NCBI RefSeq assembly: GCF_964204645.1 | Contig: NC_134028.1 | Coordinates: forward strand, 17,429,653-17,493,652 | Length of the DNA: 64,000 nucleotides | Direction of reading: 5' to 3' | From: Tubulanus polymorphus | Lineage: Eukaryota; Animalia; Nemertea | Shown: positions 9,260-43,690 of the stretch, one piece after another | How the letters are laid out: each line of letters opens with the position of its first letter | Position numbering within the stretch: the stretch's first letter is position 1 | The notes under the pieces: generated by a model | The model's database searches: none | The model's input: only the letters and a program-made list of their open reading frames with translations | What the model was told of the DNA's origin: nothing | Program-made: the position numbers and the translations under genes

Positions 9260-9861
9260 TATTTTTCAACAAAATCGGATAATAAGGAGCAGTTGTTGAA
9301 CGATTTAATAGAACATTAAGAACAAGAATGTGGAAATATTTTACAGCAAATAGTACTTTTAAATGGATTGATGTTTTACCAAAATTGATAGAAGGATATA
9401 ATAATTCTTATCATTCTTCTATTGGAATGAAACCTATTGATGCTAGAAAACCTGAAAATGCTGAAATTGTTTGGAATAATTTATATGGAGCATTTCTTGT
9501 AGATGATTTTGGTGAACCTAAATTTAAAGTTGGTCAAAATGTTAGAATTTCTAAGTATAAAAAGATATTTGACAAAGGATACGATCGAAATTTTACTAGG
9601 GAAATATATAAAATAAAAAAGGTAATAACAACAAAACCATATGTCTATAAATTAGAAGATTTAGATGGTGAAGAAGTTGATGGGTATTTTTATGAAGAAG
9701 AATTGAGTTTAACTACTGAAATCTAGAACAAGAATATAAAATTGAAAAAGTATTAAAAACAAAACCTGTTAAAAGAAAAAAATATTCTTTAGTAAAATGG
9801 GTTGGATGGCCAGATAAATTCAATGAATGGATATTATCAAGTAAAATTAAAAATATAAATG
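9260..9861 (+). pseudogene. Polinton/Maverick retroviral-type integrase, C-terminal part with chromodomain
   Basis: AVVERFNRTLRTRMWKYFT..YNNSYHSSIGMKP..KFKVGQNVRISK..GYFYEEEL. After a frameshift: EYKIEKVLK..LVKWVGWPDKFNEWI (chromodomain). Confidence 0.9.
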
Positions 9862-13554: not shown

Positions 13555-14182
13555 ATGAATAAGGAATTATTTATATTTGAGCCTCATAATATGTTAATTT
13601 CTGGCGTAACAAATTGTGGAAAAACTTATTTTATATTAGATTTATTAGAAACTGTTTATAAAAACTATTTTGGTAATATAGTATTATTTTGTCCAACATA
13701 TGAATTTAATCAAACTTATGATAGAAATATTACTAGAAATAATAAATTTATTATATTAGATCCTAAAACAGTAAAAGAAAATTTAGATAATTGTATTAAA
13801 ATAGCAATTGATATTTATAAAGGATCAAATACATTATTCATTATAGATGATTGTGCAAATTTACATGATTAAAAAATTAGAGAGAGTGAGTTATGCTATT
13901 TAGCTTTCTCTGGGAGACATTTCGGGATAACAACATGGGTTTTAAATCAAAAATATAATTCAATTGTTGAAGACTTTAGGGAGAATATAAGATTTCTAGT
14001 TTTATTTTTTAAATAAAGATAGAAAATCTATGAAAAATGCGCTTGAGGAAAATGATATTATTCCGCATGATTTACATAATGAATATATGGATAAATTGAA
14101 AAATAATAAAAGATCAAAATTACTATTTAGATTACAACACCCATTTAAATATGAATTTATTCAAATTCAACTAGCTTGTTAA
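13555..14182 (+). pseudogene. Polinton A32/FtsK-like packaging ATPase
   Basis: Walker A GVTNCGKT and Walker B LFIIDD. GRHFG..LNQKY..FREN follows a premature stop at 13870, and there is a later frameshift. Confidence 0.9.
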
Positions 14183-15361: not shown

Positions 15362-15511
15362 TATTTTAGAAAAAAAGCAAAAAAATAATTTTTTTTGATT
15401 AATTGAATATCTCACTACTTTTGTCTATCTATGCGGAGCAATTAAATTGTCCAGATAAGTCATTTCTGATTCTAGATATTCATTATTTTTATTAATTTAT
15501 TTTTCTAAAAT

Positions 15512-16139: not shown

Positions 16140-19071
16140 TACAACAAAGAAGTAACCAGTCTCTGAATCATCTGCAATATCTAGAATTCTTTTCTTCCAA
16201 TCAAATTTATCATTATTTTCATGTTGTAAAACTTCAGTTATTTCAAATACTACATAAGGTCGTGGTTCCATCATTGCCCAACCATATAGATTATTTGCAT
16301 CTATATATAATAACTTATATCCAGGGTTATCATTTACATTAAAATATCTATCGCCTAATACACCTGAAACTCCTTCTCTTATAGATTTTTCAAATAATAA
16401 TAATTGATCTATATTTGTTAACAAATCCATTTTTATATCTGTAAATTTTAATCCACAATCCCATGTTAAACCTGGTGATGAATAACAATGACAAGGATCA
16501 ATGTTAAAATATTTTAAGTTTACATCTCTAAACCTTTCAAATATATCAGTTAATAATAATACATCTGATTTTAAATATAAATCCTAATAATACTAATTGC
16601 CCATGATTTTTCATTCCAAAATGATTCCAAATATTCAATGTTCTATTATATACTTCATCTTTAACATATTCATTTTTTAATTCATCATAGAATTGTTCTT
16701 TTATAAGTTCAGTTATATTAAAATCATTATGATTTTTACAGAAAGAATATGGAATCGCTCCTTTATATCTCATTAATTGGAAATCATCATTATTTGGGTA
16801 GTGTTGTTTTAATATTTTTAATTCATCATCAACTAATGATTTTGATAAGTTATCTAATGAACTATTTAAAAATCTATATGAATCTATAAATCTTAGGCAA
16901 CCAAATTGGAATGATGTATAATTCTCAGATGTTCTAGCTAACATTTTAAATTCATAAGTTGGTATTTTATCTTTTGATCTATTTGAATTTAATCTTTCTA
17001 TTTCATTATTGATTTCTTCTATTTTATGACATAACTGTTTGATAAATAAATGTGCATCATATCCTGATGGATTATGAAATATAACTGGAACAAAATTGAT
17101 TTTCTTTGCTTGCAAATTACAATTCTCATGCGCTGCGCCTCTAAACTTTCCATTCAAATGATCATGGTCTCTTACTTTTTTATCTTTATAATTAAATATC
17201 TTTTCACAATAATAACATTTACCTGCAAACACAAATTCTTCTTTATCTTCTTCTGTCATTATCTTTTCACAATAATAACATTTACCTGCAAACACAAATT
17301 CTTCTTTATCTTCTTCTGTCATTATCATTTCTTTATTTGTATTCAATAATTTACTAAATCTTATTTCATATTCAATTAATAAGTCACAAAAATGATTGAT
17401 AACATTTTCATTTCTATAATGATAATATTCACTTTCAATTAGTTCTGCATAATCAGATTTTATATATAACCCGAAAGCTGCAGCCGATTGATGAATCTTT
17501 TTAATAGTATTTGCTTTTGGTGGTTCATCTGAAAAATCATTTTCATTAGAATTTAATTTCTTTCTTTTATAATATATTTCTTTTCTATCTTGATCAGTTA
17601 ATTCTTTATTAAATGATTCAAAATCTCCATATATAACAAATGGTACTTTATTTTTGTAATCATATTTTTGAATTCTAATATCTTATCATTTTCATTTGGT
17701 AAAACTAATTTACAATAATCATGATTTTCACATAATTGTTTATGATTTAATAATGTACTTTCATTACTGAATCTATGTAAACATTTTCTACAAAGATATA
17801 TTTTATGGTGATCATTTTCTGATTTAAAAAAAAAATCGATTTGTTTAATCCACATATAATGATTTTCATAATATAGTATCTATAAGATCATTTGAATCAT
17901 AATCTTTTGATAGGTATAAAGGTTCTAATGTATGATGTTTTATATTGTTACCTTTTGTTTTTGGTAATTTGATTAAATCAAATACATTTATTTATAAATT
18001 ATTATCTCTTTCTATTTTTGGGATATTTTAAATTCTAACAGGATACTTATCTATCTTATAATTATTTTCAAATTGTTTATAATTTTTTAATCTAAAACTA
18101 TGTGTAATATCTTCTGTTTGGTGTAAGCAACTTATAATTGTCCATAGAAAACATTTATCATCAAAATTTTGTACATTTATAACAGCATTAGTTTTAAATG
18201 GTAGTTTAATATAACTTGATGCTTCAATATCTGGTTCTTTATAATATGATACATTATTTTCATCTATTGGTTTTGATTTAGTTAACTTATTATATTTTGT
18301 GTTATACACATGTAAAGTCATAAATATTATCTCATCAAATATTAAACCAGATCCTTCAAAATATTTCTCTTCTATTTTAGTTTTTATTTCATTATAACAT
18401 TTATCTAATTTATCATCTATATGTTGTTTAGATATAATATGTTGTGAATGAGAATTTATATTATATATTGGTTTATCTTCAGATTTTATAAATTTAACTT
18501 TAGAAGATATACTAATTTTAGGGTATTCAACATCAGTAATTATTTTCATAATATTTTTCATATTTTCTAAATGTTTTTTATTTTCTTCTAATGTTTTACC
18601 TTTATGAAATTTAAACTCAATAGCTGCTGGACCAATATCACTTTTAAATGCTTCGGTTATTTCTATATCTTTTTTATTATCTAATGAATTAATATAATTT
18701 CTTACATCTTCCATGTATGGTCTTTTATTGTTTAATTTATTTCTTATTCTTTTAATTATCTTATGTTTATTATCATCGTCATTATCAAAATAATCTTCAC
18801 CTAAAATATCATTATTCATATTTCTAATATGACTTTTAGATTTTAAATGTTCATTATAATATCTTTTATCACTGAATGATTGATTACATGTACCACATTT
18901 ATATATTTCTTTTTCATTCTTTAATTCATCTAATTTAGTTTCTAATATATCATCTTCATATTCTAATTTCAATTTATTCTCTAAATGTGTTTTAGTTTTA
19001 TTGTGTCTTGATTTTTGGGATTTATCTATATTCATTTTACACGTTGAACAGTAGTACTTATTTGTTTCCAT
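16140..19071 (-). pseudogene. Protein-primed family B DNA polymerase, copy 1 (N-terminus to just past motif A)
   Basis: N-terminal C2H2-like fingers; SSYIKLP..INVQN.DDKCFLW; PFVIYGDFES; RDHDHLNGKFRGAAHENCNL; FHN.SGYDAH; RFIDSYRF; YLKSDV; LYIDANNLYGWAM. Multiple frameshifts. Confidence 0.95.
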
Positions 19072-19480: not shown

Positions 19481-21866
19481 GTTGTTGGAAATCTTATGCT
19501 CACCTTGCTGCAACGAATACGTAAACCATCAGCTTTTAGAAAGCAGCCAATTACTATGAAGGTTGATTTCGATTGTAGCTACAACATCAAACCTGATAAG
19601 GATTTAGTAATCGGTTCTGCGGCCCAAGACGTTCTCGATAATGGAGTCGCTTCTAACACTAGAGCAAAGTTCTACAAAGATGTTGCCAAATCCTATCGGT
19701 GTGTGCTATCTTACATCAAACTGAAAATCAATCCAGAAGATCAGCCATTGTAATTTCGCTCCATATTTCGTAATTTCTGGGTCCTGCTAAAGTACAAAAC
19801 TACGAAATTACGAAATATGAAACGTAATTACGAGATATGGAGCGAAATTACGAAACTACGAAATACGAAACTAAATTACGAAATGGAAATTTTTTCGCCA
19901 GTAGTGCTGAAATACGAACCGAAATACGAAACGAAATGGTCACATTTCAAACACACGCCCATACTATGGTCAAAGCTCGTTATGACGCTACGGGACTGTA
20001 AAAATCTCGGCGGTGCATGAAAATGATCTTTTGAAAGTACCATATTCAAGAATTTATTTTCTTAAACTGGAGGGTTTTTAGAACGCCATTTCCACGAACT
20101 CAGACGCGGTAAAGAATAGTGAAATGATAGGCCCTACACATGGACTACATGACGATCTTTTTACCGCTTAACAGCGTAGTGACGAGCAATTTGAAAAAAA
20201 TTCCGGCCGTGAATTTTCTTTTAGAATCCGCATCCCTTGCAAAATCCAGACTTTTAAGCTCCTCAGCAGAGGAGAAACGAGGTATCAATTTTTTAGCCTA
20301 AACACTGCAGGATATATTTTAAGGCACACTTCGTTCTCTAACCCGTAATTTATTAATCGCTACCTTCCAGTTGTATATGAGCATGCGCAGATCATACTCC
20401 CTGATGGCATCGCTAAACTCAGTCGCGGCACGGAACCCTGCCACACTAGACCGGGTGCGCATGTTTAAGCCAGCTCCACGAATCCGCTGCTATAGCGCAA
20501 AAAATTACAAAATTTTTGTTTCGTATTTCATTTTATACTTTAGCAGGACCCGCGAAAAAAAGACCATTTTGTTTCGTAGTTTAGCATTTCGTATAGTATT
20601 TCGTTTCGTACTTTAGCATTTCGTAATTTCGTTTCATATTTCGTAATTTCGTAGTTTCGTACTTTAGCAGGACCCTGATATCAGTCTTAGACGTGTGAAG
20701 ACGTTTTCGAATATGAAGTATTTTCTTAATACCTATCCAGTTGTGAAGAAGTCACTAGATATAGACAGCCTGGAAGACGAATCTAATGATTACACAACTA
20801 TGAGTGATGACGAACTACCAGTAAACCTCTTTACCATTACACCACCTAATGGAGAACCTACACATCGGTCTGCAGAGGAACAATGGCAGATGATTACAGA
20901 GTTAGTTGACCTTACTGGAGCTACAAGGTAAATATATTTATTGTTTAGTCAACATCTCTTTACTCTGAACTATGCTGAAATTTCCTGAGAGACAAAAATT
21001 GAAATTTGAACCCTGCAAGTGCAGATTATTTTCACTTTAATGGAAGTGCTTACAACATGCCCTCTTTTTTATTGATAGGTTCAAGACCCTGCCTAGGATG
21101 ATGATGACTATTCTCCTATTTCCAGTTAGTAACGCTGGATGTGAGCGTGTATTCAGCACCATAAGGAAAAACAAAACAGACTTTCGGGGCAGCCAATCTC
21201 CTAAAGTTCTTGAGTCGCTGGTGATCCTGAAAACAAGAGGGGGAACCTGTCATCTAAATAACCATATCAATGATTTGCTTAAGATGTGTAAATCAGCAAC
21301 TGCTAAATCATTAAAGCAGGACTAACTTTTCATTATTCCACATAGTAGATAATTAATTATTAGGTATTTTTCTGTTGTGTTGTGATAAAAGTTATTTTTG
21401 CAATTACAAAACATAATGTGATCGAAGCTTGAGTGATATGTAATGTGTGACAATCATTCTGTCCAGCAGTATTTCTATGGTTAAAGTACTATATTCATAG
21501 ATGTTAATTATGTATAACATGTGTATCCAGATGTATTCTTGACAAAATCAAAAGTCTCAGTTTTATTAATATGTGGGCATAGCCAGTGTAGCCACGTGAT
21601 TTATTTATGACAATCAATTACTGCAGTATTAGTTTTAATGAATACAATTAATTTCACTTAAATCAAAGGTTTTGCTTCTTTTTAAATTTACTACTAGATG
21701 TAATCTTGATTTCTGGGTTTTGTGGGGCTTTTACTTATTTTCTTTGAAAATACAGGTTCTTTTTTTTTGGAAATTTAACAAATTTTGAAAATACAGGAAA
21801 ATCATCGAAAATACTTAAAATTTTGGTTTGTGCTACTTTAAAATTTTTGGGGGGTTGGCACCTCTT
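19481..21866 (+). mobile_element. Second hAT element: 3-prime part of transposase (stop at 21325) and right end
   Basis: SYNIKPDKDLVIG matches SYNILPDKDIMIG of element 1. EEQWQMI; intron about 20928-21078; FPVSNAGCERVFSTIRKNK; end GGTTGGCACCTCT at 21853-21865. Confidence 0.82.
19779..20675. mobile_element. MITE/foldback element inserted in the hAT transposase
   Basis: GGGTCCTGCTAAAGTAC(ACGAAAT)n ... (ATTTCGT)nGTACTTTAGCAGGACCC. The hAT reading frame resumes after it. Confidence 0.8.
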
Positions 21867-24851: not shown

Positions 24852-25490
24852 TTATTTCAATATATATTTATTATTCTTTTCACATTCGATATGTTTAACT
24901 GTTTGATAATGTTTTGATTTATGTGATCTTAAATATTTACCTCCACAATAACAATACACTTTTTCATTAGGATTGAATTTTCTAAATTCATTATCTAAAT
25001 TACATTGAACTGCAATATCTTTGAATGATTTTTCATTATCTAATTCACATTGAATTCCAATATTTGATGAATTTTCATTATAAATAATTTGTTTATTATC
25101 AAAATTGAAATAATATAATTGTCTTTTTTCAATTCTTAAGTTAATCAAATCATTATAATCTTTTGAAAGTATTATATTACTTTTTCTTTCATTGAAAGGA
25201 ATTTTAAGAATATTTATTATGTTTTCATCTAAAGTTCCTTTAAAATTTAAAACTGTATTAAATATTTTAGGATTTTTGATTCCATTATCAAAAGCATCTA
25301 CTAGTTCAGTAATTAAATATGTTTCATTTGATAATATTTGATTAATCATAGTAATGTTATCAATTTTATAATGTCTTGTGGACACTAAATTTGTTGCTGA
25401 AATATAATTTTTAATGTTAAACTGTGAAAATATCTTATTGGTTTCATTGATTTCGATTTTGAATTTGGGTTCTTCTTCTTCTGTCTTCAT
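24852..25490 (-). CDS. 212-aa virus-like protein with C-terminal CxCG..H..H zinc finger
   Basis: Intact ORF ending KVYCYCGGKYLRSHKSKHYQTVKH. Its ATG directly follows the shared subterminal region. Confidence 0.65.
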   Translation of the reverse strand: MKTEEEEPKFKIEINETNKIFSQFNIKNYISATNLVSTRHYKIDNITMINQILSNETYLITELVDAFDNGIKNPKIFNTVLNFKGTLDENIINILKIPFNERKSNIILSKDYNDLINLRIEKRQLYYFNFDNKQIIYNENSSNIGIQCELDNEKSFKDIAVQCNLDNEFRKFNPNEKVYCYCGGKYLRSHKSKHYQTVKHIECEKNNKYILK

Positions 25491-26266
25491 TTTTATAACA
25501 AAAGTTTTATTAAAATGAATCTACCACATATAAATATAAATATTCAATGATTTAAATATGAATTATTTCACTCACGCTTTACTCACACTTTATATGTTAA
25601 AAATCAAGAATTTAACGCATATAAATATGAGTATTCAATGTTTTAAATATGAATTATTTTACTCACACTTTTTATGTTAAAAATTTATATTTTATCATTC
25701 GAAATCTATATTTGATCTTATTTTCTAGATTATTATGCTAATATTTTACTCTCACTTTTAAAACATGAATATTTTAAGAGTTAAGAGTAAATGGTAATGT
25801 GTTTGTTTTGTTCATAACAAAGGTTGAAGGGGCGAGTGTGTAAAAAATAAAAATAAATTCATTTTCAGCATACATGAAAATCGTACTAACACAAATTGAC
25901 CTTAAGACCTCTCAATCAACATCGCCATAGAACATTTGTCAGCAGATGTAATACATTAACCACAGCAATAACCACCACTAATACCATACCAGAGTATAAT
26001 CTTCTTACCAAAAATGCTTCAAGGACCATGGGCCTCTTGTTGGAAAATAGCCCGTACCTATTCAAGTAATTTGTATAAATATGGACTAACAATAAGTTGG
26101 TTATGAAACAGTTCAAAAAATTGTATTAAGTACAAAATCATCATTCTAATCGGTTGAAAAATGGAAGGCATACAAAAATATCTTCTACATTTTCTATATC
26201 TACGTAAATGAACAATCCCTTAAAGCAAGTTTTTGTCAAAGCTGATTAATAGTTTCCGTTTAATGG

Positions 26267-27362
26267 TCAACGACGTCGGATTCTTATTGGAGCACTCGCC
26301 CTTTTTGAGAATACAGTACGAATATCTTCCATGAAACGTTTGCCTTTATCGATGAAATTCCACAATTTGTCCAACATTTTTGTTTTGTAATTTTTTAGTT
26401 TTCTCGATGGATTGTAATGCCTGATGTTGTCACGGAAACAAACAGCAGCGATTTTGTCGCACAGACACAAAGACGTATCACATACAGTGTTGACTGAATC
26501 TAAAATGGAGAAAAACAACGATTACAGCGTATTTCTATCGATACATCATATGACGTGTATATGCACATATGGTACGTAACTTACCACAGTGAATAGTCTG
26601 ATTTCTATAAATCCAGTAATACATATTAATATGTGGATTTTTAGATATTTCGTATATATGCTTTCTTTTGCAAGTCGTTTGCCGGATATCGTAATAACAT
26701 TTATCATGTCGCATGCAACACCTACAAAAATATATTTAGGCCACCTAATGAAAGTGTCGGATTACCAAGTTCAGCCTTTAAATGTACAACTTGTCTTATT
26801 ATTTCTAATTGACGCGTTTAACTGATCAATAACCCTTGGTGCATAGATCATATCTATTTACATTAACGCATTCCTAAATAAATAATCAATGCACACAAGA
26901 TAATGTTTTTATGATGTGACTTAAGGAATCAATGAATTGCCTACGTATCAATAGGATCTAATGGAAGGCCTCTTCCTCCAAAACCGCACCATCGACCATA
27001 TCCATTGAAAAGGGAAGCTGAGTGTCCGGTGACGATTTGAACCATTTGCCCAAACTGATCCAATCTGCGTTTTTCCCTTACCAAGCCTAGAACAAAGTGT
27101 TCTTTCTGAATACAACATTTTGTCACCCTTCGAAAATGCATGAAATGTGTATCATTAATAAGTCTCGATTTGATTAAATATAAGTCATTATGTTCACACG
27201 TAAAGCAACCTACCTAAACTTTTGTCAGTTACCAAAATCAGCGTCAATATGTATCTGATGACACTACGAATGTTAGTATTCCTTAATCAAATCAAATATG
27301 GTTTAGATTTCTCGTTTTCAAATTATGTTGGAAATATATCATGTTCGAGCATCAACTCACAT
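26267..27362 (-). CDS. Secreted phospholipase A2 (group I/II-like), 193 aa; exons 27362-27361, 27281-27214, 27086-26945, 26721-26585, 26499-26267
   Basis: Phase-consistent GT-AG splicing gives MNTNIRSVIRYILTLILVTDKSLGLVREKRRLDQF..YGRWCGFGG.G.PLDPIDTCCMRHDKCY..CDTSLCLCDKIAAVCF: Ca loop, His-Asp dyad, Tyr and second Asp. The first two exons are less certain. Confidence 0.9.
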
Positions 27363-29129
27363 TTTTCCTCTCGCTTTCAGAATACGGCATAAATAGAATT
27401 GTATTTAACTAACTCAGCATCGTTTGCGGTTATAAATAAGTAAATAATCGACCTAAATCGGCTGTAATCATTGCTGTTCACACATCAACGAAAGGTTGAC
27501 ATCGATAAACCTCAGATATTCTAATATGTTTAACGTATTAATTAAGACTAAATATGTATAATCGATGTGGTGTATTGCCTATGATTATGTTGTTATTATA
27601 ACCCGCACTAAGCAAGCGTACAGATAATCGATACTCAAAACATTGTATATGATAATGAGTCTAATTGAATCGTTTAATCATTAATGAATACCCCAAGCTT
27701 AATTCAATTCATTCGATCTATATATATTTCATATGAAAATGATATTATAATATCATTTTCATATGTAAGTTCATTAAACACGTATCAAGTGACAAATGCT
27801 GAGATGAGTATTGTGCTCACTGGAACGTTCAAATAGTACGAACGCGTTTTTGGAGGGGCGGGACAAAAATTATACTTACTTTGTACGGGAAGGGGGTTAA
27901 AGTAAAATGTGCGTATTCTTTGTGATGGGGTGGTACTTAGTGAACTGGAAATATTCAAAATTACGTCAAATGGTAGTACAAAAAACTGAATAACACGCAT
28001 TCTAATATTATCCTACTCTAAATATCATGTTTAATTAAAGGTACGTAGGTAAACAGGTAATACATTATGGCTAATTCGTTGGGTGAGAGGGAGGGAAATT
28101 TACGTACGGATGGGGTACCACAAAATAAGTACCAATATCGTATAAAGGGGAGGGGGTCTAAACTAGACATATACGTAAAGAATACCTCTCAGCTATTGAT
28201 CTCATAGATCAAAAACACTAGGGTTAATCCTCCTCCTACCATGGATAGAAATACCACGTCATACGAAAATCAGTAAAAAAACTATAGATTGTAGACAAAG
28301 GCCGAAATCCAGGACGCCTATTTCACACAGAAATTTGGTTGCTTTCAACGACCTTAATGCGCCTTCCTCCCGTCATTTAAACCACAGCTCAAGCATGAAG
28401 AAAATCAGTCTAAACCTCTACACCTTAGAGCTGTTATAAGCTCCAAAATGGGTTTTTAAAACGCCGACATGTAGAGCGGAAGTAATTCAAATATGGTTAT
28501 TTCACACACCAACATGACTGTGGCGGCCATACTGGGTGATAAAAGGGCTCATACTCTTTCCATCACAAAGCCATAGATCGCGTAATAAACACATTGTTAT
28601 GAAGCGGTTGACGGAAACAAGCTCGAAATTGCTCACCAAATCAGGTCGACCCTAGTTCCAGGACGCGTTAACTACCTTGCAATCTTGGGTTACGGATATA
28701 CACGTTTTTAGTGTATTATTAGATTTCAAGGTCGTTTTCGCTACCAAAATGCTGGTCAAATGATATCGTTCAGAAACATATTTAAATACGAAGACAAGAA
28801 CTTTGGAAATTAAGGTACGTTTGTTTTTAATTCATACTGAAAGGTGTCTGGACTTAATTGTCGAAGAATGAGAACAGGAATAGACAATTAATAGGAATAT
28901 GGTAAACTGTAAAACGTGGATAGCAATTAATGGAAAATTGTAAGTCGGTATTGGAAAATCAGAAATCTTCTGCCAGTTTACCAGTTTACCGCCAGGGACC
29001 ATGTCAATGATTCAACTGCCAACTGGAGCGGGGGCTGGTTCATACAACATGGCACTAATAAGAAGTGGGATGATATATATGAATGAATTTCAGATTGGAA
29101 CCACTGGCTAAAAGAAAGAGGTTCGACAC

Positions 29130-29945
29130 CACGAATCTATTCGGAGTTAACTTCGTCAACTGGTCTGAAAGATATTCCTTTTGATGGCACGCCATTTATT
29201 TATGACAGTCGTCTGGTGCTTAACTGTCACCATGGCGCTGATTATAATAAGAGTAAAAAAGAGACGCCGCAAGTCTTTGAATGCAAGTCGTTGTTTTAGT
29301 TTGATGGTTTATAGTGTGAGTGCAGTAAGTTCGTATATCTTTGGTGGAGGATCATGTATTCATTAACAAAAAAGCTTGACTGCCCTGCATCGATAAAAGT
29401 GAATAAGGTTGTCCAATTTCCTGATATAATGGAGATTACCGCTTAATCCTAAAGTATTATGCATTGTTACTCGAATTATGTGATTTATTTATCAACGGTA
29501 ACACTGTACGTTGTTAAGAAAACGGTTCGGCGAAACTCCGACAGAATTTGCATGACTTGTCAATAAATGGATAAATACAATATCATATTCAGTTGCCCGA
29601 CATATAGGACCACAAGGAAAACCCGTTGGGGATGAGGTAATTTGTCCGCGAAACAATGATTCTGATTATTAAGGCCTAGGGATTTTGGTAAGATTTACTC
29701 AAAAATGTTGCTTGACACTTCTTTGCTTTAAATTGGCTTTATTTTTTTAGTGGACAATTTAAGGAAATTATTCTATCTGGAACTTTGCTCATTTGAATTT
29801 TACAAATACGCGTAACGTACCACATGTGTTTTAATTTTCAGACAGCAAATATGTGCGAGCCTGTTGATCCTGTAATCGTACAGAAGATACGCAGCCTGAC
29901 ATTAAACAGAGTTCGGAAAGTGTCTGAAATGATGCCATACATCTG
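29130..29945 (+). pseudogene. CaRF-like / MULE transposase N-terminal fragments
   Basis: IPFDGTPF..LNCHHG, TKKLDCPASIKV, YHIQLP..DH, PVDPVIVQKIRSL..VRKVSEM, in exon-like pieces. Confidence 0.55.
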
Positions 29946-30049: not shown

Positions 30050-31240
30050 CAGCAAAAAACAATATGAAATAAAAAAGTTAGTTGATGTTACAAAAGAAAT
30101 TGAACACAAAATATTAAAATTAGAAAAGATAAAAACTAAATATGGAGATAAAGTATCAGCAAATTTAAGTTACTGTAATTTTAGTTCAACGCGAAAATTT
30201 AAAGTATTTCTACCTGATAAATGAGTTTCATTGAGTACAGAGGAATTGAAAGATTTAGAAGGATTTAAAATAATCTATCATGGAAAAAATGAAGACGGTC
30301 ATCATGATTTAGAAATTGTTGATTAAATAAAAAATAAATTGATAAAAAAATTAATTAAATATTAAGAATCCGAAATGACTTATCTGGACAATTTAATTGT
30401 TCCACATAGATAGACAAAAGTAGTGAGATATTTAATTAATTAAAAATGAAATTATTTTTTTTTGCTTCTTTTCTAAAATATTAATCCATTTTTATTTTTA
30501 ATAGCAGTAAATTCAGAATTATTAATATCATGAATTTTATTTGATTTTTTATGCCAACTACACCCAATCAAAATGAATACAATTACAAATCCAGTTGTAA
30601 AATATAAATATTCATCAAACATTCTATTCATCTAAACGCTCTATCAGAAGGAGTAGAAATAACAATATTTTCACCATTTTTATTAACATCTTTATTATTT
30701 ATTTTTTCTTTTAAAGCTTTTTTAAATTCTCTTGATTTAATTCCTAATTGCCGAGACCATTCAATTTGTTTCTGTGATCTCAGTTTTTTCTTCACAGTTA
30801 ATTCTTTCACTTCGCTCATTTATTGTAGAAAAATGTTTACTTTCAATACTTGAAAATGTCATAAATCCAGTTGATAATAATTTCATAAATCCACCTAATT
30901 GAAATTAAATATCCAATCCATTTATTTAATTCAGTCATAACTAAATTTTCATTTTTCAAATCGGATTATAATCTATTTTCATCTTAAATTGGTAGCATAT
31001 ATTGACATAATTTACTATAACCTTTTACTACATTTTCTGATATCGCATCATTAATTCTAGCTATTCTCGCAGTTTCATAAATCTAAAATAATTTAATAAT
31101 TTCATCTGATTTCATTGTATCTAATTCATTATAACTTAAATTTTTACTAATAAAACTTTTACATTTCCCAGATGCTATTAACATTTCTAATTTATGTTTG
31201 CAATAAAGATAATATTCATAATTATTATTTGTAGTAATAT
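30050..31240. mobile_element. Polinton block, inverted diverged paralog of 14590-15790
   Basis: TKYG ORF on + (30050-30326) and the two ATPase-downstream ORFs on -. The reverse complement aligns throughout. Confidence 0.88.
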
Positions 31241-33643
31241 CATACATCGATAATATAATTATAATATAATTATAATTCCATTTGATGAATTAACAAACAA
31301 AAAGAAACAAAGAGAGCGAGATGAAATGTGGTACAATATAGAACTTTATTTTAATGAGAAAAATGAAATGGAAGAACCTAAATAATTAAATGAAAATGAA
31401 GAAGCCAATAGTGATTTCGAGTATGATGATATTGATTTATGTTTTTTTAATAACCACAAGGTACTGGTTTTATTCCATCATCCAAAATGTATCTTTTATC
31501 GTCGAATGGATTTAATCTAGTTTTTTCAACTTCATTAATGTACATTTCGTGATCTTCTAATCTTAAACAATTCATTTTATGTTTCATAACTATTGCGTTA
31601 TATAAACACTTTATATAATCTTGAAATTCTATACGTTTATCAACCACGTGCTTTGTTATTCCTTTTAACTTTTTTCCTTCATGATCTTTTGTTCTGTAAC
31701 TATTCATTTTACTTCTTATCCCAACAAATTCAATCATTTCATCACCCCCTAATTCATCTTTAAATTTACCAGGAATTTTCTTATTATCATTGCTAAATAA
31801 TTCATGATCTTTTGGATAATTGCTAAAGTCAAAATGATGTTTTAATGTTTTTAAGTCTTTTGTTATGTCATTTGTCTTGATTTTTAGTATGTAGGCGTCC
31901 GTATTTAAGCAAATTAATGGAAATCCACAGTTAAATGTTCCATTTTCAGTTGATAAATCATAAACATAATCTGATGGGTTATATATTTCAAATAAATCTC
32001 TAACTTCTTCAGTTCATTCATTTTCTACATGGCTTAAATTAAAGCAATTTGGTTTAGATTTAATCAATGCAATATTCATATTAAAACCTAATGAACTACA
32101 TAACACATTTAACCCACTTATTGCACATTTTCCTTTCTGAGCCAAAGATATTGTTTTGTGGTTTTCTAAACTTTTTGTTCCATCTGCTGCGTAGAATCCA
32201 ATGAGGAACCATTTTCTTAAATTATATTTTGCATTTAATACATAATCTGGAACTATATTTTTTTTTGTTGAAGTAATTCTTTTAACTATTGCATGAATAT
32301 AGAATTCATCATTATATTTAATTGCAAAATCTTTAGGGTTATTCACAAGTATTCTATAAACTGCTGTTTCATATGATCCACCATTCTAAATGTTTTATTT
32401 GGATAAACTTCTTCACAGTATTTTTTAATTCTTTTAATTTCAAATCTAGATTGCATAAATACCAACAATATTGAGTGCGACTAATATATTTATAAACACC
32501 CGCTGAACCATCTCCGATAAAACATCCTTTGATGAAATATTCTTTTTCTTCTAATGTTTCTGGTTCTATATTATAGATATTATCAATTATTTCATCAAAT
32601 GACCTATGATCCATTCTTGGGTAAAATCTTTTATGTAATAATTCATCTCCAATTTTTAGCATTGGTTGACGTCTATGACGTCATGCCAATGCAAGTAAAA
32701 TGGACCGAAAATAGTAGTACGAAAAAATAGCGCCAACTCTTCTCATTTTCATAATAACTTCAAATTGTCACTCCGTTCACGTAAAACATTAGAAACAGCT
32801 GAAAAAGACTAAAAAAAATGTTTCAATTATTCTTCACAACATAGCGTCGCCAGATTTCTGATTTAATGGTCCAAAAAGTTATTCGATTGCATTTTTCTCG
32901 TTCATTATCTGGTAGATGAGAGTGGGTTAAACAATCGCGTAGCGATATGTACGCATTGACATTGGCAGTAAAGAATGGGGAACAGCCTCTTCTGAATAGA
33001 AAAACATAAAATTATGTACCTCCAGTTTATAAATATCACAGTGTTTGGATATCTTTGTTACTCCAACTATCAGTATCCATGGGATTATTTGGGATTAATC
33101 CTCAGCGTCAGAATACGTATTTCTAGAGCAGTGGAACGGCAGCCTACTCGTAACTGAAACCCGTATGTGATCGTGCGGGAACGCCTTTACTAAAGTTAAA
33201 ACCATTTCATGATGACACGAAACATCAAACGGTAAACGGTAGGCTACCACCATGATACGATATCACCAATAAAGATGGATCATTTTATTCAATTTTACCA
33301 GAGTTGTTTATTGGAGGAAAATATCATTGTTAGGTACGGCGAGAACAACCATGTTGTATCATCAATCAGTTGACTGACATTGTAAAATTCGATTCGGCTA
33401 TATTCTAATATAGGTTTTCACTTTAGGACGCCCTACCCGCCTGCTGCACACTCATAAGGCGGTAGCACCCTCTTACGCACTCGGCAGAGATTCGCTTTGT
33501 AATGCGCGCCGGGAAAAAATACCTTTTATTATCTTTTTCCATGCGTTAAACAACAGTGATTGAATTTACGCGTTGTTTGTCGTAAATTACAATATTGCGA
33601 TGGTTATTTGCCGCTGCTGTAGTATTTTGGAATTGAATCGAGC

Positions 33644-34362
33644 GGCCTCGGTAGCTCAGTGAGATAAGGCGTGATGCTGTTGAATCCACGATCAATGCCG
33701 AGTGACAAGTGGGTTCGAGTCCTGCAGGCTGCGAACAGTGTGCGGGCAACACTTCAAAGGCCGTACCGGCGTGAGGTTAAATGAACAATCCAATAGGAAT
33801 AGTCTTGGGAAACCAAGATCCAAACGACGTACGTAATGCCAATCAAACAAAAAGACAAACAAACAATCATCAGCCGGCCTCAGTGACACCAACGCCGGCA
33901 TCGCTCGCTGCGACGTTTTGCATGCGTACAGGCATCAGAGCTTGGAGCTCTAAGATCAGAGGGTCTTGCAATTGCATTCAGAAAAAATCGTTCTGTTTTT
34001 GTTTTCATTATTCAGTGGGGCCTAACAGTTCATGCGTAAAAATGGGTTTTTGTATCCAAATCTTGATTGATATAAATATCTTGGCTGGGACATGATGGAA
34101 AACATCAGAATAAACTAGTTCCGTCTTTTTAAAAGAATCGCATTAATGAGGTTTAACAGTACAAATAGCCTAGGCTAAATCGTTCGGCAGAAAATAAATT
34201 CATTTTCAGGAATGAAATCGTACTAGACAAATATAGACCTTAAAGTCTGTGGTCCTCCCAATCAACATCGTCATAGAAGATTTGCCGGCAGATGTAAAAC
34301 ATTATAACCACTTAATACCACAGTATAATCTACCGATGCTTCAAGGCCCATGGGCCTCTTGT
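33644..34362 (+). mobile_element. tRNA-derived SINE-like repeat
   Basis: A-box-like TAGCTCAGTGAG (33652) and B-box GGTTCGAGTCC (33712). The downstream body is repeated at 23460-26040. Confidence 0.62.
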
Positions 34363-34477
34363 TATATCAGTTGGTTTTATTTCATCACCATTTTTCTAAT
34401 TAAACTATGATCTTCTGTAACATCTACAAATCCTAATTTAGTTCTAACTCTATATATTATTTTATTTGTTTTATGTC

Positions 34478-35883
34478 TATTATTATTATTATTATCATTA
34501 TTATACATGTTTAAGTGCCCTGTCCAGATTAGTGAAACTGCTCCAAAGCACTTACAAATACAGAAATACGACGTACAATAAAATCTGATGATAAAAACAT
34601 TACAATATTGAATTTAAAAACAGTGAACATTCAGTAAGACAATTTCAATTGAAGGCAATTCTAAAATAATGTGCTTTTAAATTCTTTTTAAAACACTCAA
34701 TAGACTTACTGCATTTAAGATGACTAAGCAAGGCATTCCAAGTTTTTGGGCCATAGACTCCAAAAGACTTGTCACCAAATTGGCTAAACGTACGTGGAAT
34801 AAAAAGTAAATTAAAATTAACAGATCTAAGATTTCGCTATGGTCTATAAAAACTAATCATGTCACAGAGATAATGAGGAGCCTCATTTTTAAGGATAGAA
34901 AATATCAAAACACAGATTTTAAAATCTATTCTAAAGCGGACTGGCAGCCAATGAAGGTCTGCTAAAACAGGAGAAATGTGTTCACTTCGTTTAGTGAGGG
35001 TAACTATTCTAGCTGCCACATTTGGTACCTTTTGTAATCTGTAAATCTGTGTCGCCGGGATATTAGATAACAAAGAATTACAATAGTCTTGCCTAGATGT
35101 AACCAAAGCATGAATAATTGACTTGGTAGAATCCGTAGATAGATACTTACGAATACAACCAATGTTTCTCATATGGAAATAACAGGATTTTATGACGGAT
35201 GACACATGATCCGTCATAGACATGGATCTATCAAAAATAGCACCTAGATTCCGTACTGAGTGAGCAGGTACTACAGAAACAGAACCAACATGCAGTTGTA
35301 CATCAGTAGGTGGTACATAACGAGGAGAACAGAAAAACAAAGACTCGGTTTTGTCACAATTTTTGTCACTATCTCTGTGATAATTGGTAAAAGATCGTCT
35401 AAACGCTCTTTTAAAAGCCATGTTGGCAAAGGATCCAATTCACAGGATTTACTAGCTGAACTAGTTATTATTTTCCTTATCTCATCCTGCGTTGCTAAAG
35501 AAAAAGTTGATAGACTATTAAACTCCGGAAGTGAGTGGTCACTGCCTAAATTCTCAGAACGTGGTAAGGGCATATCAGCACGGATATCACTTATCTTATC
35601 CAAAAACTTATTAAACTGATTTGCTAAAGCCTCGGCTGACTCATAATGTGGTAAAACTGGCACAGATGATGAACCAAGGAGGTGTTTCACTACTGAGAAA
35701 ACACTTTTGGAGTTACGACCACAATCGATGATTTTATTGTTGAAGTACTGCCTCCTTGTTTCAACGATCATGTGGTTAACAAAACGACACAGCAGTTGAT
35801 ACATCTGCCTATGAACTTCCAGCTTACTCTTTCGCTACTGCCGTTCCAAGCAACGCCGTTCCCGTTTAGTATCATGAAGTTCG
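34478..35883 (-). mobile_element. L2/CR1-clade LINE, 5-prime truncated, RT core deleted
   Basis: KSCELDPLPTWLLK; VRNLGAIFD; HALVTSR.DYCNSLL; LQKV.N.AARIV; LHWLPV..RIDFK. 3-prime (AAT)n tail at about 34480-34503. Confidence 0.88.
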
Positions 35884-37852
35884 TCTAATTATATTTTTTA
35901 ATTTTTTCCATCCATTTTTTGTCCAAACATCCATTAATCCATTAATTTGTATTAATCCTTTTTCACCATATGAAATATAAGATTTATTTTGATTAGGAAT
36001 TATTTCTGAAATTCTTCTAAATAATATTTGATTATTGTATTTTTATAGTATTTGGGTATCAGCTGTTACAGAATCAAAATATAATATTTCAATATGCGTT
36101 TCCCCAAAAATTGGTTGTAAATATTATAATAGAAATCATTCATTAATAATTTTGATATTTCTAAAACAGTTGAACCAATGAATATAGGTTTATAAAATTT
36201 CATTGACGCTCTTTTTAATTTTACTGCTGTTAAATAATCTTTTATTTCCTAAGTGTCTAGGACTTGATTGTAAATTTCTCAGTCGTTCAGAATTATTTGC
36301 TAATTCAATATCATTTCTATTTCTTATATTTTCACATGTTTTTCCATAAAAAACTATTATTCATTAATTTAAAAAAATCTTTATCAAGATCTGTTTTAGA
36401 TATTGTCCTCTGTTGAGTATTAAAATCTATATATTTTTCTAACCACTTCGATGGATTAAATTCAATATATCGATATACATTCTTTAATTTCATTCCTTGT
36501 TTTAGATAACACATTCTAAAACATTTAACATTCTATAATGAACGATATAATTGTATTTATTATTTTGTGATAATATTGATTTTTCTGTAAAAACATGATC
36601 TTTGGGTTTTATTTTTTTCTGATATTCACTTAAATAACTATCATCTACAGCTAAATGTTCTTGGCAATATGGTAAGTTTCTTGTTTTACACTTTATGTTA
36701 TCAGGATATTCTCAATCAACTACAAATAAATAACCAATTGGTGCTTCATCTTTTAAACCCATAATTGCACAATCAGTTTTATCATCATTTTCAACTTCTG
36801 TTAATATAAAATTTTTGTATGGTTGAGGTTGCATCATTGCTCAACCATATAAATTATTGGCGTCAATATATAATAATTTATATTCATCATCCAATTAACT
36901 ATCTCCCATAACACCACTAATTTCACCTCTAATTGATTTTTTAAAATAATAAAACCATGTATGGTTCTTTTAATAAATCTAATTCTACATTTGTATATTT
37001 TAAACCGCATTGCCTGGTTAAACCAGGACTTAAATAACAATAACAAGGATCAACATTAAAATGATTCAAATTAACTTCTCAAATTTTTCAAATATATCAG
37101 CCAATATCATAACATCTGATTTTAAATATAAATCTACTAATTCACCGTGATTTTCTATCTTAAAGTGATTCCAAATATTTAATGTTCTATTAAATACTTC
37201 ATCTTTCACATACTCATCTTTTAATTGATCATAAAATTGTTCTTTTATTAATTCCATTACATAAAAATCATCATGTGTTTTATAAAATGAATAAGGAATT
37301 GCACCTTTAAATCTCAATAATTTAAAATCTTGTTCATTTGGGTAATAATTTCGAGTTATTATCAAATCATTATCAACTAAACTTTTTGCTAAACTATCTA
37401 ATGAACTTGCTAGAAATCTATAAGAATCTAAAAATCTCAAACAACCAAATTGAAATGAAATGTAATTTTCAGAAGTCTTAGCTAATAGTTTAAAATCATA
37501 TTTTCTTACATTTGCATCATTCCATAACACTATTCAATTGAGAATTTACAATACTTAAAGGACTACTGAACAATTTTGTTTTTTCCCTTGAATCAATCCA
37601 GTAAGATGTAATAAATGATAATCTAATGACCTTAGGTATATTTGTTTTCATTTCGAATACTTTTAAGAGGTTTTTTCTTGCTACGGCAAACCAAAATATA
37701 CGTAGTCGCGATGCTCAGCAATCTCGGGTAATCCCCTGTGGTGACGTCAGCGCGAGATGTTGAGAACCCGGAAGTATTATCAGCCTCGTTCAGATAGCGA
37801 TAACAACAGGAGATAAAGTGATTATAAAAAGATTTTAAAACGATTTTAAACT

Positions 37853-40800
37853 ATGCCACGGCGTTGTTTGTACTACAATTGTAGTACACAAGATTCCTTG
37901 TTATACAAATGGCCGCGTGATCCAAATATTGCTAGAGTATGGACTGCTTTTGTGAGTAAAAAGCGAGCACAATGGAAGCCTTCGTCATCAAGTGTGCTCT
38001 GTAGAAAACATTTCACAACGGAGGCCTTCGACAATTACATGGAGTAAAATGCTGGTTTTGCTAATAGGTTTGTATATTAAAAACATCAATCCCATAAAAT
38101 AAACTGATACCTTGATTCTACAGCTTTTGAAACAAATCATATTTAATTCACTTTCGAGTGACCTGGGTCTAAGTGTGTCATGTATAATCAGGCGACTTGT
38201 AATTAGTTTGGAAACAACTGACTATTATGATGCATTTTTCACTTCAGTCTTCGATTAAAGAAAGATTCTGTACCAACTTTGCATCTCAATGATTCTGTTG
38301 TGTCGAATTCTGTTGACTCGCCTCAGAAAGCAGATTTTTTGAGTCCGCAGATGCAGAAAGGACGTTCAGCTTTTGAAAAGAGACGGAGGCTAGCGATGGT
38401 CAATGATGCGACTCAACCAAGTGTAGCTGAACCAGAGCTTCAAAGTATTGACTTTGAAATTGATGGTGATGGCGATCTCGATAAGATGTGGGAAACTGTA
38501 GCTGTTCAAACTGAACCTATCACATCTAGTAAAGGTAATTACATCCATTCGAAATCATGAATAAGATAGTTGCCTACCTACTTTTAATTTCATATTTCAT
38601 TTGTTGATTATAGAAATTGAATTAGATTTGATCAGTATTATTCAAAAATATACTTTTAATTTCATATTTCATTTGTTGATTATAGAAATTGAATTGAATT
38701 TAATCATTATTATTTAAAAATATTTTTTCAGCAATCCAAACTCTCAAATGGAAACCTAAGTACTTTTGTCAACGTCGACATTTCCCAAAATATTCAAAAC
38801 CGAAAATCAAAAGCTACAAAATCAGACGCACCTCACGTGGGGTTCAATGTTCCCTTCTATCCCCAAAGACAAGACCCAAGAAGCGATACAGAAAGGCTAG
38901 TCAGAGCAGTGTCTCATCAAACAAGACAGATTCTGATGAAGAATATCGTCCAGAGTGCGACACGGAGACTGAATCGGATGATGAATTTCAAGAAGAAAGT
39001 TTGAAATTTGAAGAAATGAAGTAAGATGATCATTACATGTAGCCTACCCTCAAGTTAGATATCATGACATAGAAATTTGTATTTGATTTTGTCGAGAGAT
39101 CAATACTAAGATCTGTGAAATTATAGAAGTATTTTTACTTGCAGGAATGAAGATGACGTTGATTTTCAGGATCAGACCAAGTTTATTGTTTATCAGTCTG
39201 CTCTGCTGATACTATTTCAATTCTGCAGTATCTGCAAGGGTGAAAATCTTGTCTCGAAGAGTGTGTCTTCTACCTGTCTGACAGTTAGAACCCAGTGTAA
39301 GCTGTGTAACCACAGGACCACATGGAAAAGTGAGCCATCCATCAAGGGTATTCCCGTTACCAGTATATTATTGAGTGTTGGAATACTACTGACAGGAAGC
39401 CTAACAGCAAAGGTGATCAGGTTGTTTAAGTAAGTTGAAACCAATGCTTGTCATCAAATTGTGCCTCAATTTTCATCGACTTTTAAAAAATACATTTCAA
39501 TATATAATTTCAAACATTCATTGTCAATCCAGCTTCATAAAAATTCAGTGCCTTTCAACGCGAACAGTGTATAACCATCATTCGAAATACATCCATGCCG
39601 CTATACGACAAGTTTGGGAAAGGAAACGCGAGTCTATGCTTGATAGTCTCAAATCATCTCCACTGTTGATAGGAGGAGATGGACGCTGTGACTCACCTGG
39701 CCACTCGGCATGTACTGCTCATACTCAATAATGAATCTGGAGACCAATAAAATAATAACTTCTGAGTTAGTCCAAGTAAGTATGCCTTGTAGTTATTCAG
39801 GGTTTATGAATGTGGATTCGTTTTTAGGTATTTTGTTTTTTTAATGTATAATTCAGTCAAATGAAGTGACATCATCAAATGCGATGGAACTAGAAGGCTT
39901 AAAAAGATGCGCAGAAAAACTGAAGAAATTCAAAATCACAGCTCTCGTAACTGATATGCATTTGTCCGTTAGAAAATGGGCACGCGACACTTGGAAAATT
40001 CCACATTACTATGATACTTGGCATTGTGTCAAAGGTGCGTAAGTAACACAATTTTGTAAATGGTTTCTTAAGGCTTGTTCACAAAGATCTACGTTTTGTT
40101 TTTCATTTTATCTGTCAAGCAGTCACAAGAAAACTTGAACGCCTAGGAAAGCAAAAAGACATGGAGGTTATCAAAGAGTGGATACCCAATATCAAAGTCC
40201 ATTTGTACTGGTGTGCCCAATCCTCAGAATCAGGAGACCACGAGACAATAAAACAGAAATGGCTGACATGCATACAGCATGTTCAAAATAATCATGAGAA
40301 CTGTCTCCACGCATCATATTCTAAAAAAAAGAAATGGTTAATTCCAGGTATATTTTTCTATTCTCTATTTAATAGCTACCCGGTTAGATAATTAAGTGTA
40401 AATAATTGTTTTCATTTTGATTTATTGATCTTTTAATTTTTTAGGATCCAATGTTGCATCTGAATTTGAGAATCTTGCAACTATCACGCGGACAGTTAAT
40501 CAGATATCCAATATGTCTAGCTATGGACAAACCAGCAGTATCGAATGCTTTCATAACATCTTAAATCATTTTGCCCCTAAGATGATAGATTTCTTTTACG
40601 TCGGAATGCTCAGTAGGTATGTAAATACATGTAAAAATATGAATTTACAAAATCACATCATTGTTCTACCTGGTACATTATCATTCTATCTTCATTTCAA
40701 ATTCCATTAGGATCTGTATAGCAATACTTCACTATAACGAAAATTCTGAACGAATTCAAGCTGAAACGAAGACTGGTAATCAGCGATGGCAGGTGCACTA

Positions 40801-42571: not shown

Positions 42572-43690
42572 TTAATTGCGCTTCAGATATAATATAAATG
42601 TGCATTTAAGAAATTTAAGCTTCCTTTTTTCTTTTTCATGAATAATTGTATCCCATCTTTTGTATTTTGTAGTTTTTTCCCCAGAACCATGTAATAAATT
42701 ATCCTCTGTCGTTCTAAAATCTAACCATAATGCATATTTATTACCGGTATAATAATCAATTTGATTAATATTACAATTTTCAGATGATTTATTTTTTTCA
42801 TTCATAAAATGTTTTCTAATTTCTGGCCACTGATCTATCATTCTCGTTCCTTGACAAAATATTTTATTTGCTATGCCTTCGATAGTTATTTCTACTTTTG
42901 TTATTTCAGGATTATAATACTTATCAACCTGTACTGCGCCATTAGAATATGTAGCAATGGTAACAAATATCAATACACCTTTAATAGATCTTCTTGGGAA
43001 GTTAATATTCTCATTAATTATTTCATCATTTGCATTAATATTTAAAGTTTTAAATTTATCAATATAATCATATAATAATGAAAATCCTTGATTGTATTGA
43101 GTTTGAATTATGCTAGCAATATTTTCATCAGTTACTGTATCATATTCTAAACATATATTCGATAATTTATATCCCATATCTTTAACAACGCTAGATAATA
43201 CTATTTCATTAACAGGGGCAAATGTTATCTCGAATATAATATCTTCTTGAATTGCATATTTATATAAAGGTGCATTATTATTTATCAATTCAAAATCTAA
43301 TGGAATTTTATATTTGCTTCCATGAATCTTTTTTATCAAATTATCTGTAGCATTAATTATTATTGCATTATTAGCTTCTGATCTTAATTCATTATGGTTT
43401 TCTGATTGGATTCCTTGAAATATCATATTATTTCTATTTTCTTTTGTCAACCATCCAACACTATCAACAACATAATCATTATCATGGCCAGTTACTTTTA
43501 TAACAGCTGATAAATAAATACTATTTGGAACTTAAAAAGTATTTTGATTTAATCTCGGGATTCTAACATATAAAGTTTCATCAGGATTAATATTAGAAGG
43601 ATTATGAGTAATTATGTGATGAGATCTCCCTGCTTTAATAGCATTAGATATTCTAGAATTCTTAGAAGGATTTATGTAACTCTCACTCAT
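42572..43690 (-). pseudogene. Polinton major capsid protein; last 13 codons and stop displaced to 37558-37517
   Basis: THNPSNINPDETLYVRIP; YKIPLDF; YKLSNICLEYDTV; RSIKGVL; YNPEITKVEITIEG; KYALWLDFRT..LHGSG; MHIYIISEAQL|SIVNSQLNSVME*. Confidence 0.88.

Follow-up and report, generated by a model that had tools for sequence, protein, structure and literature searches.

A broken LAGLIDADG intein in motif C of a Polinton-type DNA polymerase, probably carried into an animal germ line

The window analysed here, a 64,000-nucleotide stretch of contig NC_134028.1 (positions 17,429,653 to 17,493,652, forward strand), holds the remains of a gene of Polinton type for a family B DNA polymerase with protein priming (pPolB), whose catalytic motif C is interrupted between Asp and Thr by a broken intein of the LAGLIDADG type. 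The intein probably belongs to a giant-virus-type clade and is likely to have reached an animal germ line by way of a Polinton, and intact copies of the family are predicted to splice and likely to home. By site and closest sequence kinship it can be assigned as an allele of the pol-c intein; the allele type is known, while the kind of gene that hosts it is new and the genome very likely an animal's.

Insertion site and anatomy of the intein

On the minus strand, the pPolB frame runs through HIEILYFD up to 36073 and continues as S-V-T-A-D-T from 36072; the intein closes with YVYDLSTENGTFNCGFPLICLN at 31903, and TDAYILK starts at 31902. The insert (36072-31903, minus strand) splits motif C of the Polinton pPolB as YFD/TDA, the slash marking the point of insertion. 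This arrangement had been recognised in the original prediction, made from the letters alone, and all the coordinates and stretches quoted there were found in the sequence at their given places. About 353 codons of LAGLIDADG type, or roughly 1,059 bp of the 4,170-bp insert, belong to the intein, which lies in three pieces (Table 1); the remainder consists of a fragment resembling a long interspersed nuclear element (LINE) and a 1,706-bp repeat. The two pieces joined in the prediction stand, but its two-piece anatomy does not, the block-B piece (34478-34362) having been missed.

Aligned with the intact intein of the polymerase P0005, described below, the three pieces are 57.8% identical over 356 columns, and tblastn with P0005 returned E values of 5e-20 (36114-35884), 2e-11 (34490-34392) and 3e-77 (32659-31864), low enough to exclude a chance match to an intein. 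The third piece shares 46/75, 13/28 and 92/157 identical residues with P0005 and is 74.6% identical to the related fragment P0121. Block B reads VDVTEDHSL (at 34.4 kb), the two LAGLIDADG motifs (GCFIGDG and GFYAADG) both keep their Asp, block F is YVYDL, and block G ends in Leu-Asn. Among the splicing residues that had been called canonical, Ser1, VYDL, the terminal Asn and Thr+1 were confirmed, whereas the penultimate residue is Leu instead of the canonical His.

The LAGLIDADG_3 profile (PF14528) matched 32017-32385 with 25.6 bits, above the Pfam cut-off of 22.5, and the Hint models of Pfam and NCBIfam gave no match to the separate intein pieces of the window. The LAGLIDADG part of the expected domain content was recovered directly; the Hint call for the window draws on two other sources, the relatives with intact inteins and the N-terminal piece, which matched an intein alignment (A1) in a profile comparison (hhalign probability 95.6).

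The window copy of the intein is dead: besides the two later insertions that separate its pieces, it contains two in-frame stops (36045-36043 and 32016-32014) and three frame changes (near 34394, 32434 and 32366), with several further stops and frame changes in the N-extein. Most of the Atlas clusters nearest to the LINE-like fragment are eukaryotic, Chordata or Mollusca figuring among their most frequent recorded phyla, and its nearest named Atlas family is RVT_1 at 0.88; both observations serve as leads only. The 1,706-bp repeat matched nothing in Rfam and no tRNA, and it may resemble elements of the HINE/Helentron type. A spliceosomal or group I intron was considered for the insert and rejected, as its borders are not GT-AG and it is in frame in relatives; a search of Rfam over 31000-37000 gave no match at E up to 1, which counts against a group I intron.

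Intact relatives, kinship and mobility of the intein

A search with 31450-32013 gave 174 matches, and among the best 120 only P0005 (1,693 residues, JGI) covers the whole query. This protein carries PF03175, PF14890 and PF14528, and its insert of 354 residues is placed at YGD/S..ISN/TDS. The nearest intein-free polymerases (P0001-P0004 and P0122), whose identity in the C-terminal part is 71-77%, show HIEIMYFDTDSYILK uninterrupted, with YFDTDS running through the site, so that the exteins are contiguous as the prediction implied; P0001-P0004 taken with P0122-P0126 show either YFDTDS or YLDTDA there. An intein at the same site was found in six other pPolB clusters, five with unbroken frames (P0005, P0135, P0145, P0149 and P0150) and the sixth, P0121, a fragment.

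The residues expected of a splicing intein are widely kept. Ser1 and Thr+1 occur in the window and in 5/5 full relatives, a terminal Asn in 7/7 pPolB intein lineages, and the Thr and His of block B (VDVTEDHSL type) in 11/11 pPolB inteins read, while two G-F-x-x-[GA]-D-G motifs are present in the window and in 11/11 intact pPolB inteins. PF14528 is above its cut-off in the window and five relatives, and the Pfam Intein_splicing model (PF14890) in P0135 (37.7 bits vs 35.8). An AlphaFold model of the P0005 intein, built from 59 alignment rows, has a predicted local distance difference test score (pLDDT) of 95.2; its best Foldseek matches in the PDB are the homing-endonuclease inteins 7qsu (E 2.4e-17), PI-PfuI and PI-SceI; among the viral matches that have a name, the best belong to the DNA polymerases of a phycodnavirus, Pandoravirus, Marseillevirus and Megavirus. 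As modelled, the P0005 intein has a Hint plus LAGLIDADG fold. When P0145 was compared with PDB sequences, the only match was a weak one to Nanoarchaeum NEQ068 that spans the junction (E 0.017). The intact pPolB inteins likely still splice.

The kinship of these inteins lies with giant-virus polymerases. The P0005 intein retrieved 1,302 proteins, of which the best 120 comprise 114 PolBs with PF00136, one topoisomerase and five pPolBs (P0005, P0135, P0145, P0149 and P0150); an exhaustive search added no further pPolB except the fragment P0121 among the best 150 of 2,058 matches. In viral contigs, identity reached at most 42% among the best 80 of 575 loci, and 40/80 of these loci have GVMAG in their names, which we take to denote a giant-virus genome bin. 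With other queries the viral contigs returned little: one weak locus (37%) for the LAGLIDADG piece of the window, none for the P0135 intein and no match for alignment A3. Phage records yielded two weak matches, to the intein part only (28-29%), and metagenome contigs searched with P0005 yielded no intein match. Of the 215 nearest non-pPolB inteins, 212 follow YGD, whereas the residue before the motif-C Asp varies in pPolB inteins (YFD, YMD, YLD, SSD, ASD and YGD). The pPolB inteins group together in both intein trees, which are unrooted: eight pPolB rows form one clade beside 65/215 other motif-C inteins, with a value of 99 in the Shimodaira-Hasegawa-like approximate likelihood ratio test (SH-aLRT), and seven form one clade in a more careful tree with 31/215 (support 100/100). 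This single clade of seven agrees with the proposal that an intein lineage invaded Polintons.

Several giant-virus-type PolBs found in these searches carry more than one intein: P0133, P0136, P0138, P0146 and P0188 have two inteins 2-3 residues apart in motif C (D/TD/ and neighbours), and others have an additional intein at SAN/S. The topoisomerase II P0143 contains two inteins of the motif-C PolB family at 31% identity, an instance of non-allelic spread.

The polymerase tree was built from 49 intein-free and seven intein-bearing rows, after 71 long intein-free proteins had been thinned and the short P0121 left out. Intein presence requires five changes on this tree, and the intein tree mirrors it inside the subclade whose members bear an endonuclease VII-like domain (PF02945), a domain found in this pPolB family. 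Identities of intein and extein are also close to each other, at 58% vs 57% for the window and P0005, 47/46% for another pair, and 76% vs 79% for P0149 and P0150. Within this main subclade the matched trees point to long residence with loss and regain rather than to five fresh invasions, and repeated independent invasions of it were not adopted as an explanation, the two trees agreeing there. The P0145 intein is 40-46% identical to the others and nested with the window's group (98/87), while its C-extein is only 19-26% identical to other pPolBs and its polymerase 21-26% identical to the rest; a nested intein in so divergent a polymerase requires a lateral jump between distant polymerase types.

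The matched trees and identities would also suit a single ancient acquisition followed by vertical descent and repeated precise loss, with an endonuclease that no longer homes, and the differences seen in the P0135 cluster would then be ordinary recombination between Polinton sublineages; the intein-bearing P0135 copies indeed form one small clade on the polymerase tree. The nested position of the P0145 intein speaks against that account, and so do the copies of the P0135 cluster. This cluster represents 136 sequences; the 15 listed come from ENA contigs between 57 kb and 1 Mb long. Of these, seven are full-length with intein (1,537-1,539 residues, 98-99% identical, polymerase motifs intact), six reach motif C without intein, and two fragments that stop short of it were dropped. 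Over residues 1-1,042, identity between intein-bearing and intein-free members is 94-99%. Counting as fixed those columns in which the two kinds of member share no residue, all ten fixed differences cluster on the insertion site, between -6 and +44, with none in residues 1-1030 and none in 1102-1191. Within ten residues of the site, 6/21 columns vary among intein-free members and none among intein-bearing ones. The acidic residue of both LAGLIDADG motifs is, moreover, kept in all intact copies, and such residues decay once homing stops. Vertical descent without homing is accordingly judged unlikely.

The near flank of the intein-bearing P0135 members, YMD/TDSFVLSVN, is that of a sister lineage 75-82% identical elsewhere (131/136 proteins being readable). 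Either it was co-converted from that lineage or the target changed in the intein-free copies, and both would imply an active endonuclease; the local differences are of the kind that homing, or escape from homing, would leave. An Asp-Cys-Asp at motif C occurs in 3/17 members of the P0135 sister family vs 1/74 others (28 unread), and in 2/6 intein-free members of the P0135 cluster, counts too few to be taken as evidence. The same triplet was observed in the intein-free P0258, P0260, P0111, P0115, P0117 and P0077, mostly from intein-invaded families, as possible escape variants.

The following course of events may be proposed. A motif-C intein of a Nucleocytoviricota-type PolB would have made a single entry into a Polinton pPolB, in a cell that was probably co-infected and through the D/TDS context common to both polymerase types. 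It would then have resided for long in one pPolB subclade, with loss and regain, and made at least one jump into a distant pPolB type (P0145). Ser1, the block-B Thr and His, the block-F Asp, the terminal Asn and Thr+1 are predicted to excise the intein by the class 1 route and to rejoin DTDS; splicing would be required in intact copies, because the catalytic motif would otherwise stay split. The endonuclease would cut motif C of intein-free copies, whose repair on an intein-bearing template would convert the site and a short flank; intein-free survivors would show altered sequence around it. Carriage into the germ line would have been effected by the integrase of the Polinton, and the window copy later gained the LINE fragment, the 1.7-kb repeat, two stops and three frameshifts. 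A stronger version can be offered only tentatively, with slightly less confidence than its opposite: that the giant-virus-derived intein is active in an animal germ line, where it splices, converts intein-free copies, has selected escape variants of motif C (Asp-Cys-Asp included) and has crossed two major Polinton polymerase types.

Several results weigh against a spliced and homing intein of giant-virus origin. With the trees unrooted, the direction from giant virus to Polinton is read from the nesting and from a diversity that is far greater on the giant-virus side, and the equality of intein and extein identities makes several independent jumps within the main subclade unnecessary. Intein-bearing pPolBs are rare, with 1/120 among the best of the 174 matches and 0/80 among metagenome pPolB loci, and the flank pattern of P0135 is a protein-level comparison of 13/136 cluster members. 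The penultimate His of block G, described as an assisting residue in splicing in an excerpt of PMC7765530, is absent from 4/7 pPolB inteins, the window's included (its place is taken by Leu in the window, by Ser in P0005 and by Lys in both P0121 and P0145, whereas P0135, P0149 and P0150 have it), and the Hint models stay below their cut-offs for P0005, P0145, P0149 and P0150. These last two points would fit an insert that does not splice, a passenger cassette of Hint-like and endonuclease parts that inactivates the polymerase and persists only in non-autonomous elements helped in trans, for which the coexisting intein-free copies of the P0135 cluster could act as helpers. The seven near-identical full-length frames of that cluster, with their intact polymerase motifs, speak otherwise, as does the retention of all other splicing residues across lineages 40-58% identical. 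Ends without His are also common in the PolB inteins of giant viruses, where the gene is essential: the penultimate His occurs in only 80/215 related PolB inteins and a Lys-Asn end in 117/215. We regard such a passenger as very improbable and as the least credible of the explanations weighed.

Host genome and Polinton remains

Among the Polinton fragments of the window lies a secreted phospholipase A2 (sPLA2) gene (26270-27062, minus strand) with PF00068 on three exons and GT-AG borders. An ALS2CR8/CaRF domain fragment above the Pfam cut-off (29087-29296, plus strand) and remnants of hAT transposases (PF05699; 10403-12650, minus strand, and 21041-21322, plus strand) were also found. A spliced sPLA2 gene and THAP, CaRF and LINE features together mark an animal, and the sPLA2, THAP, CaRF, hAT and LINE-like sequences make it very probable that the host of the window is one.

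Reads from four runs of one species, covering three samples and two studies, were aligned to 31400-36400; one of the runs, X1, may be the source of the window itself. In run X5, raw-read depth was 118-238 over the intein bins, 8-33 over the LINE bins and about 980-1,940 over the 1,706-bp repeat, and a joint from 32655 to 34362 that skips this repeat was supported by 163 reads with 88 starts, and also by contigs of X1-X3. If the thinnest bins represent one copy, the species carries about 10-25 intein copies. At the two stops of the window, 173/175 and 233/247 X5 reads differ from it. These depths, joints and stop differences indicate an intein family that is multi-copy and inherited in the species, most copies being without at least some lesions of the window. 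Depth over the exteins was higher than over the intein (317-326 and up to 633), which suggests intein-free copies in the host species; no extein-extein joint was seen among the 15 of 177 read joints listed.

A rival reading accepts the intein but assigns the DNA to a eukaryote other than an animal, to a symbiont or to a chimeric assembly. It draws on the closest intein-free relatives, which lie on short environmental contigs, and on the X5 reads, of which only 494/24,184 are at least 99% alike to the window. It is opposed by the three-exon sPLA2 gene, the THAP and CaRF domains and the LINE-like insertion nested in the intein, by the occurrence of the element in multiple copies across three samples, which come from two studies and bear one species label, and by the named relatives of the window polymerase, which are from a leafhopper and a mite; it is considered highly unlikely. 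As regards the original claim that the intein had reached an animal germ line, its presence in a Polinton was upheld, and the germ line is likely, on the strength of the sPLA2, THAP, CaRF and LINE features and of the multi-copy reads.

Table 1. Intein pieces, later insertions and Polinton-related features of the window
Feature	Positions	Strand	Evidence
Intein piece 1: block A with Ser1, N-terminal Hint strands	35884..36072	-	44/78 identical to P0005, E 5e-20
Intein piece 2: block B, T-E-D-H, RVRTKLGFVDVTEDH	34362..34478	-	27/33 identical to P0005, E 2e-11
Intein piece 3: the two LAGLIDADG motifs, block F, block G	31903..32655	-	P0005 tblastn E 3e-77
pPolB N-extein, exonuclease end to motif C	36073..37521	-	tblastn vs intein-free P0122 residues 694-1194, 55.6%
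pPolB C-extein starting with Thr+1 (TDAYILK)	31447..31902	-	77.4% to intein-free P0122; 151 codons without stop
Later insertion 1: 5'-truncated LINE-like fragment, (AAT)n tail	~34479..35883	-	Open reading frames 35274-35834, 34840-35439
Later insertion 2: 1,706-bp non-coding high-copy repeat, 3' GACGTC hairpin	32656..34361		Read joint, depth
Decayed gene downstream of pPolB	30773..31229	-	68.5% to L084:5149-5781
THAP domain in transposon stretch, at expected place of pPolB 5' half	37850..38044	+	PF05485 34 bits, cut-off 23.9
Second pPolB copy, N-terminal two thirds	16140..19071	-	Up to 82% to P0003; stops short of motif C
A32-type packaging ATPase, other inverted Polinton copy	13555..14007	+	PF04665 28.1 bits, cut-off 22.8
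Retroviral-type integrase, C-terminal part, other Polinton copy	9286..9723	+	70% to L084:6213-7154
Probable double jelly-roll major capsid gene	42575..43675	-	Atlas 0.97 to viral clusters

The N-extein is recognised by PF03175 on 37069-37533 (E 2e-5), and the 5' half of the intein-bearing gene was not found within the window. A homologue of the decayed downstream gene also lies downstream of the intein-free pPolB in locus L084, where the integrase homologue (L084:6213-7154), which passes the rve cut-off with 36.4 bits, follows the closest intein-free pPolB. The second pPolB copy, 79% identical in DNA to the first over 300 bp, ends before motif C, so its intein state is unreadable. An inverted pair of about 1.2 kb (14582-15784, plus strand, and 30054-31243, minus strand; 81-93% identity) represents the genes downstream of the polymerase in two oppositely oriented Polinton copies. 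The Polinton genes of the window are parts of at least two fragmented copies.

The capsid candidate had no Pfam or PHROG match. Some of its Atlas clusters have Capsid_NCLDV or Capsid_N in 10-18% of their members, with a recognition of only 1704, and it is 49-50% identical to L088:1774-3027, a match that adjoins a related pPolB; it may or may not share a copy with the intein-bearing polymerase. Two adjacent frames at 47619-48373 (minus strand), without family match, presumably begin like a Polinton minor capsid (penton) gene. In this fragmented region, no cysteine protease was found among the 123 open reading frame pieces of the window scanned, and no inverted repeat brackets the intein-bearing copy among the 25 longest of 67 pairs. 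The element is filed as Polinton-type with reservation, given the fragmented copies and the protease and terminal repeats that were not found.

Elsewhere the window contains tandem 31-bp arrays at 465-1414 (about 31 copies) and 4585-8393 (about 117 copies), a 51-bp array at 8939-9258 that has inverted repeats within it, and an AT-rich open reading frame of 222 residues with a zinc-finger-like end (24855-25520, minus strand), for which no family or relative was found.

Relation to known inteins and Polintons

Inteins are described as limited to microbes and unicellular eukaryotes in an excerpt of PMC7765530, and as absent from metazoan genomes in one of Green et al. (2018, PMC5784728). The full-text literature was searched, with supplements and Repbase outside the scope, and no Hint intein came to light in a Polinton, in any protein-primed polymerase or in an animal genome, consistent with the original remark that none was known from a Polinton pPolB. 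The available parts of PMC12220804, PMC13768754, PMC3671162, PMC5718144, PMC13215967 and 10.64898/2026.10.13.758929 held nothing relevant.

If activity in an animal germ line holds true, metazoan chromosomes would here have their first resident and mobile intein family, which would also be the first of any protein-primed polymerase. Inteins resident in animal Polintons would show an entry route from giant virus through Polinton to germ line, and would testify at the molecular level to animal-type Polintons and giant viruses having been in the same cells and to an exchange of DNA between very distant polymerases. They would also supply the first concrete Hint intein behind the idea that pPolB insertions derive from intein invasions (PMC11071308, seen in excerpt). 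The near-identical intein-bearing and intein-free copies of the P0135 cluster allow both homing and the escape of targets to be put to the test in a multi-copy element. The claim is limited in that the intein is not in a host gene.

The closest known system is the pol-c intein, and the assignment made in the original prediction agrees with the available text of Ogata et al. (2005, PMC549080), in which YGD/TDS is defined as the pol-c site, occupied in the PolB of Mimivirus and in archaeal PolBs. The pPolB inteins share with these the motif-C site, Ser1, the block-B Thr and His, the terminal Asn, Thr+1, the two-motif LAGLIDADG endonuclease and a length of about 350 residues, and are 34-44% identical to metagenomic pol-c members. 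They differ in the variable residue before the Asp, in forming a clade of their own with seven members, and in the host gene, which in the window is a protein-primed PolB (PF03175) of an integrating Polinton and not an RNA-primed one (PF00136).

The carrier resembles the adintoviruses or Mavericks of Starrett et al. (2021, PMC8502044), as far as that text is available, in combining a pPolB, an integrase, an A32 ATPase and a probable capsid gene, here in decayed copies; the word intein has no occurrence in the main text of that paper as available. By their PF03175 scores, P0145 (111 bits) would fit the adintovirus type Alpha and the window family (50-62 bits) Beta. Other insertions are known in Polinton pPolBs, namely HNH/VSR nuclease domains (Jeong et al. 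2023, 10.1101/2023.08.22.554363), which have been suggested to stem from intein invasions (Krupovic et al. 2024, PMC11071308). In the accessible portions of these two sources such domains are permanent and no Hint domain is reported, and that of Jeong et al. mentions neither Hint, LAGLIDADG nor homing. The pPolB intein differs from them in having the full splicing blocks, in interrupting the catalytic motif and in being present or absent among near-identical alleles.

Klebsormidium, Tetrabaena and Hondaea have been reported to carry inteins in the DNA polymerase genes of endogenous giant viruses situated on nuclear scaffolds (Gallot-Lavallee et al. 2023, PMC10710043, seen in part). In those cases, as here, the intein of a viral polymerase was brought into a eukaryotic nucleus within a viral element. 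Their hosts are algae and a labyrinthulomycete, and the main text of that study, in the part available, includes neither Polintons nor animals; the carrier described here is, unlike theirs, an integrating element in multiple copies, whose lineage also contains intein-free targets.

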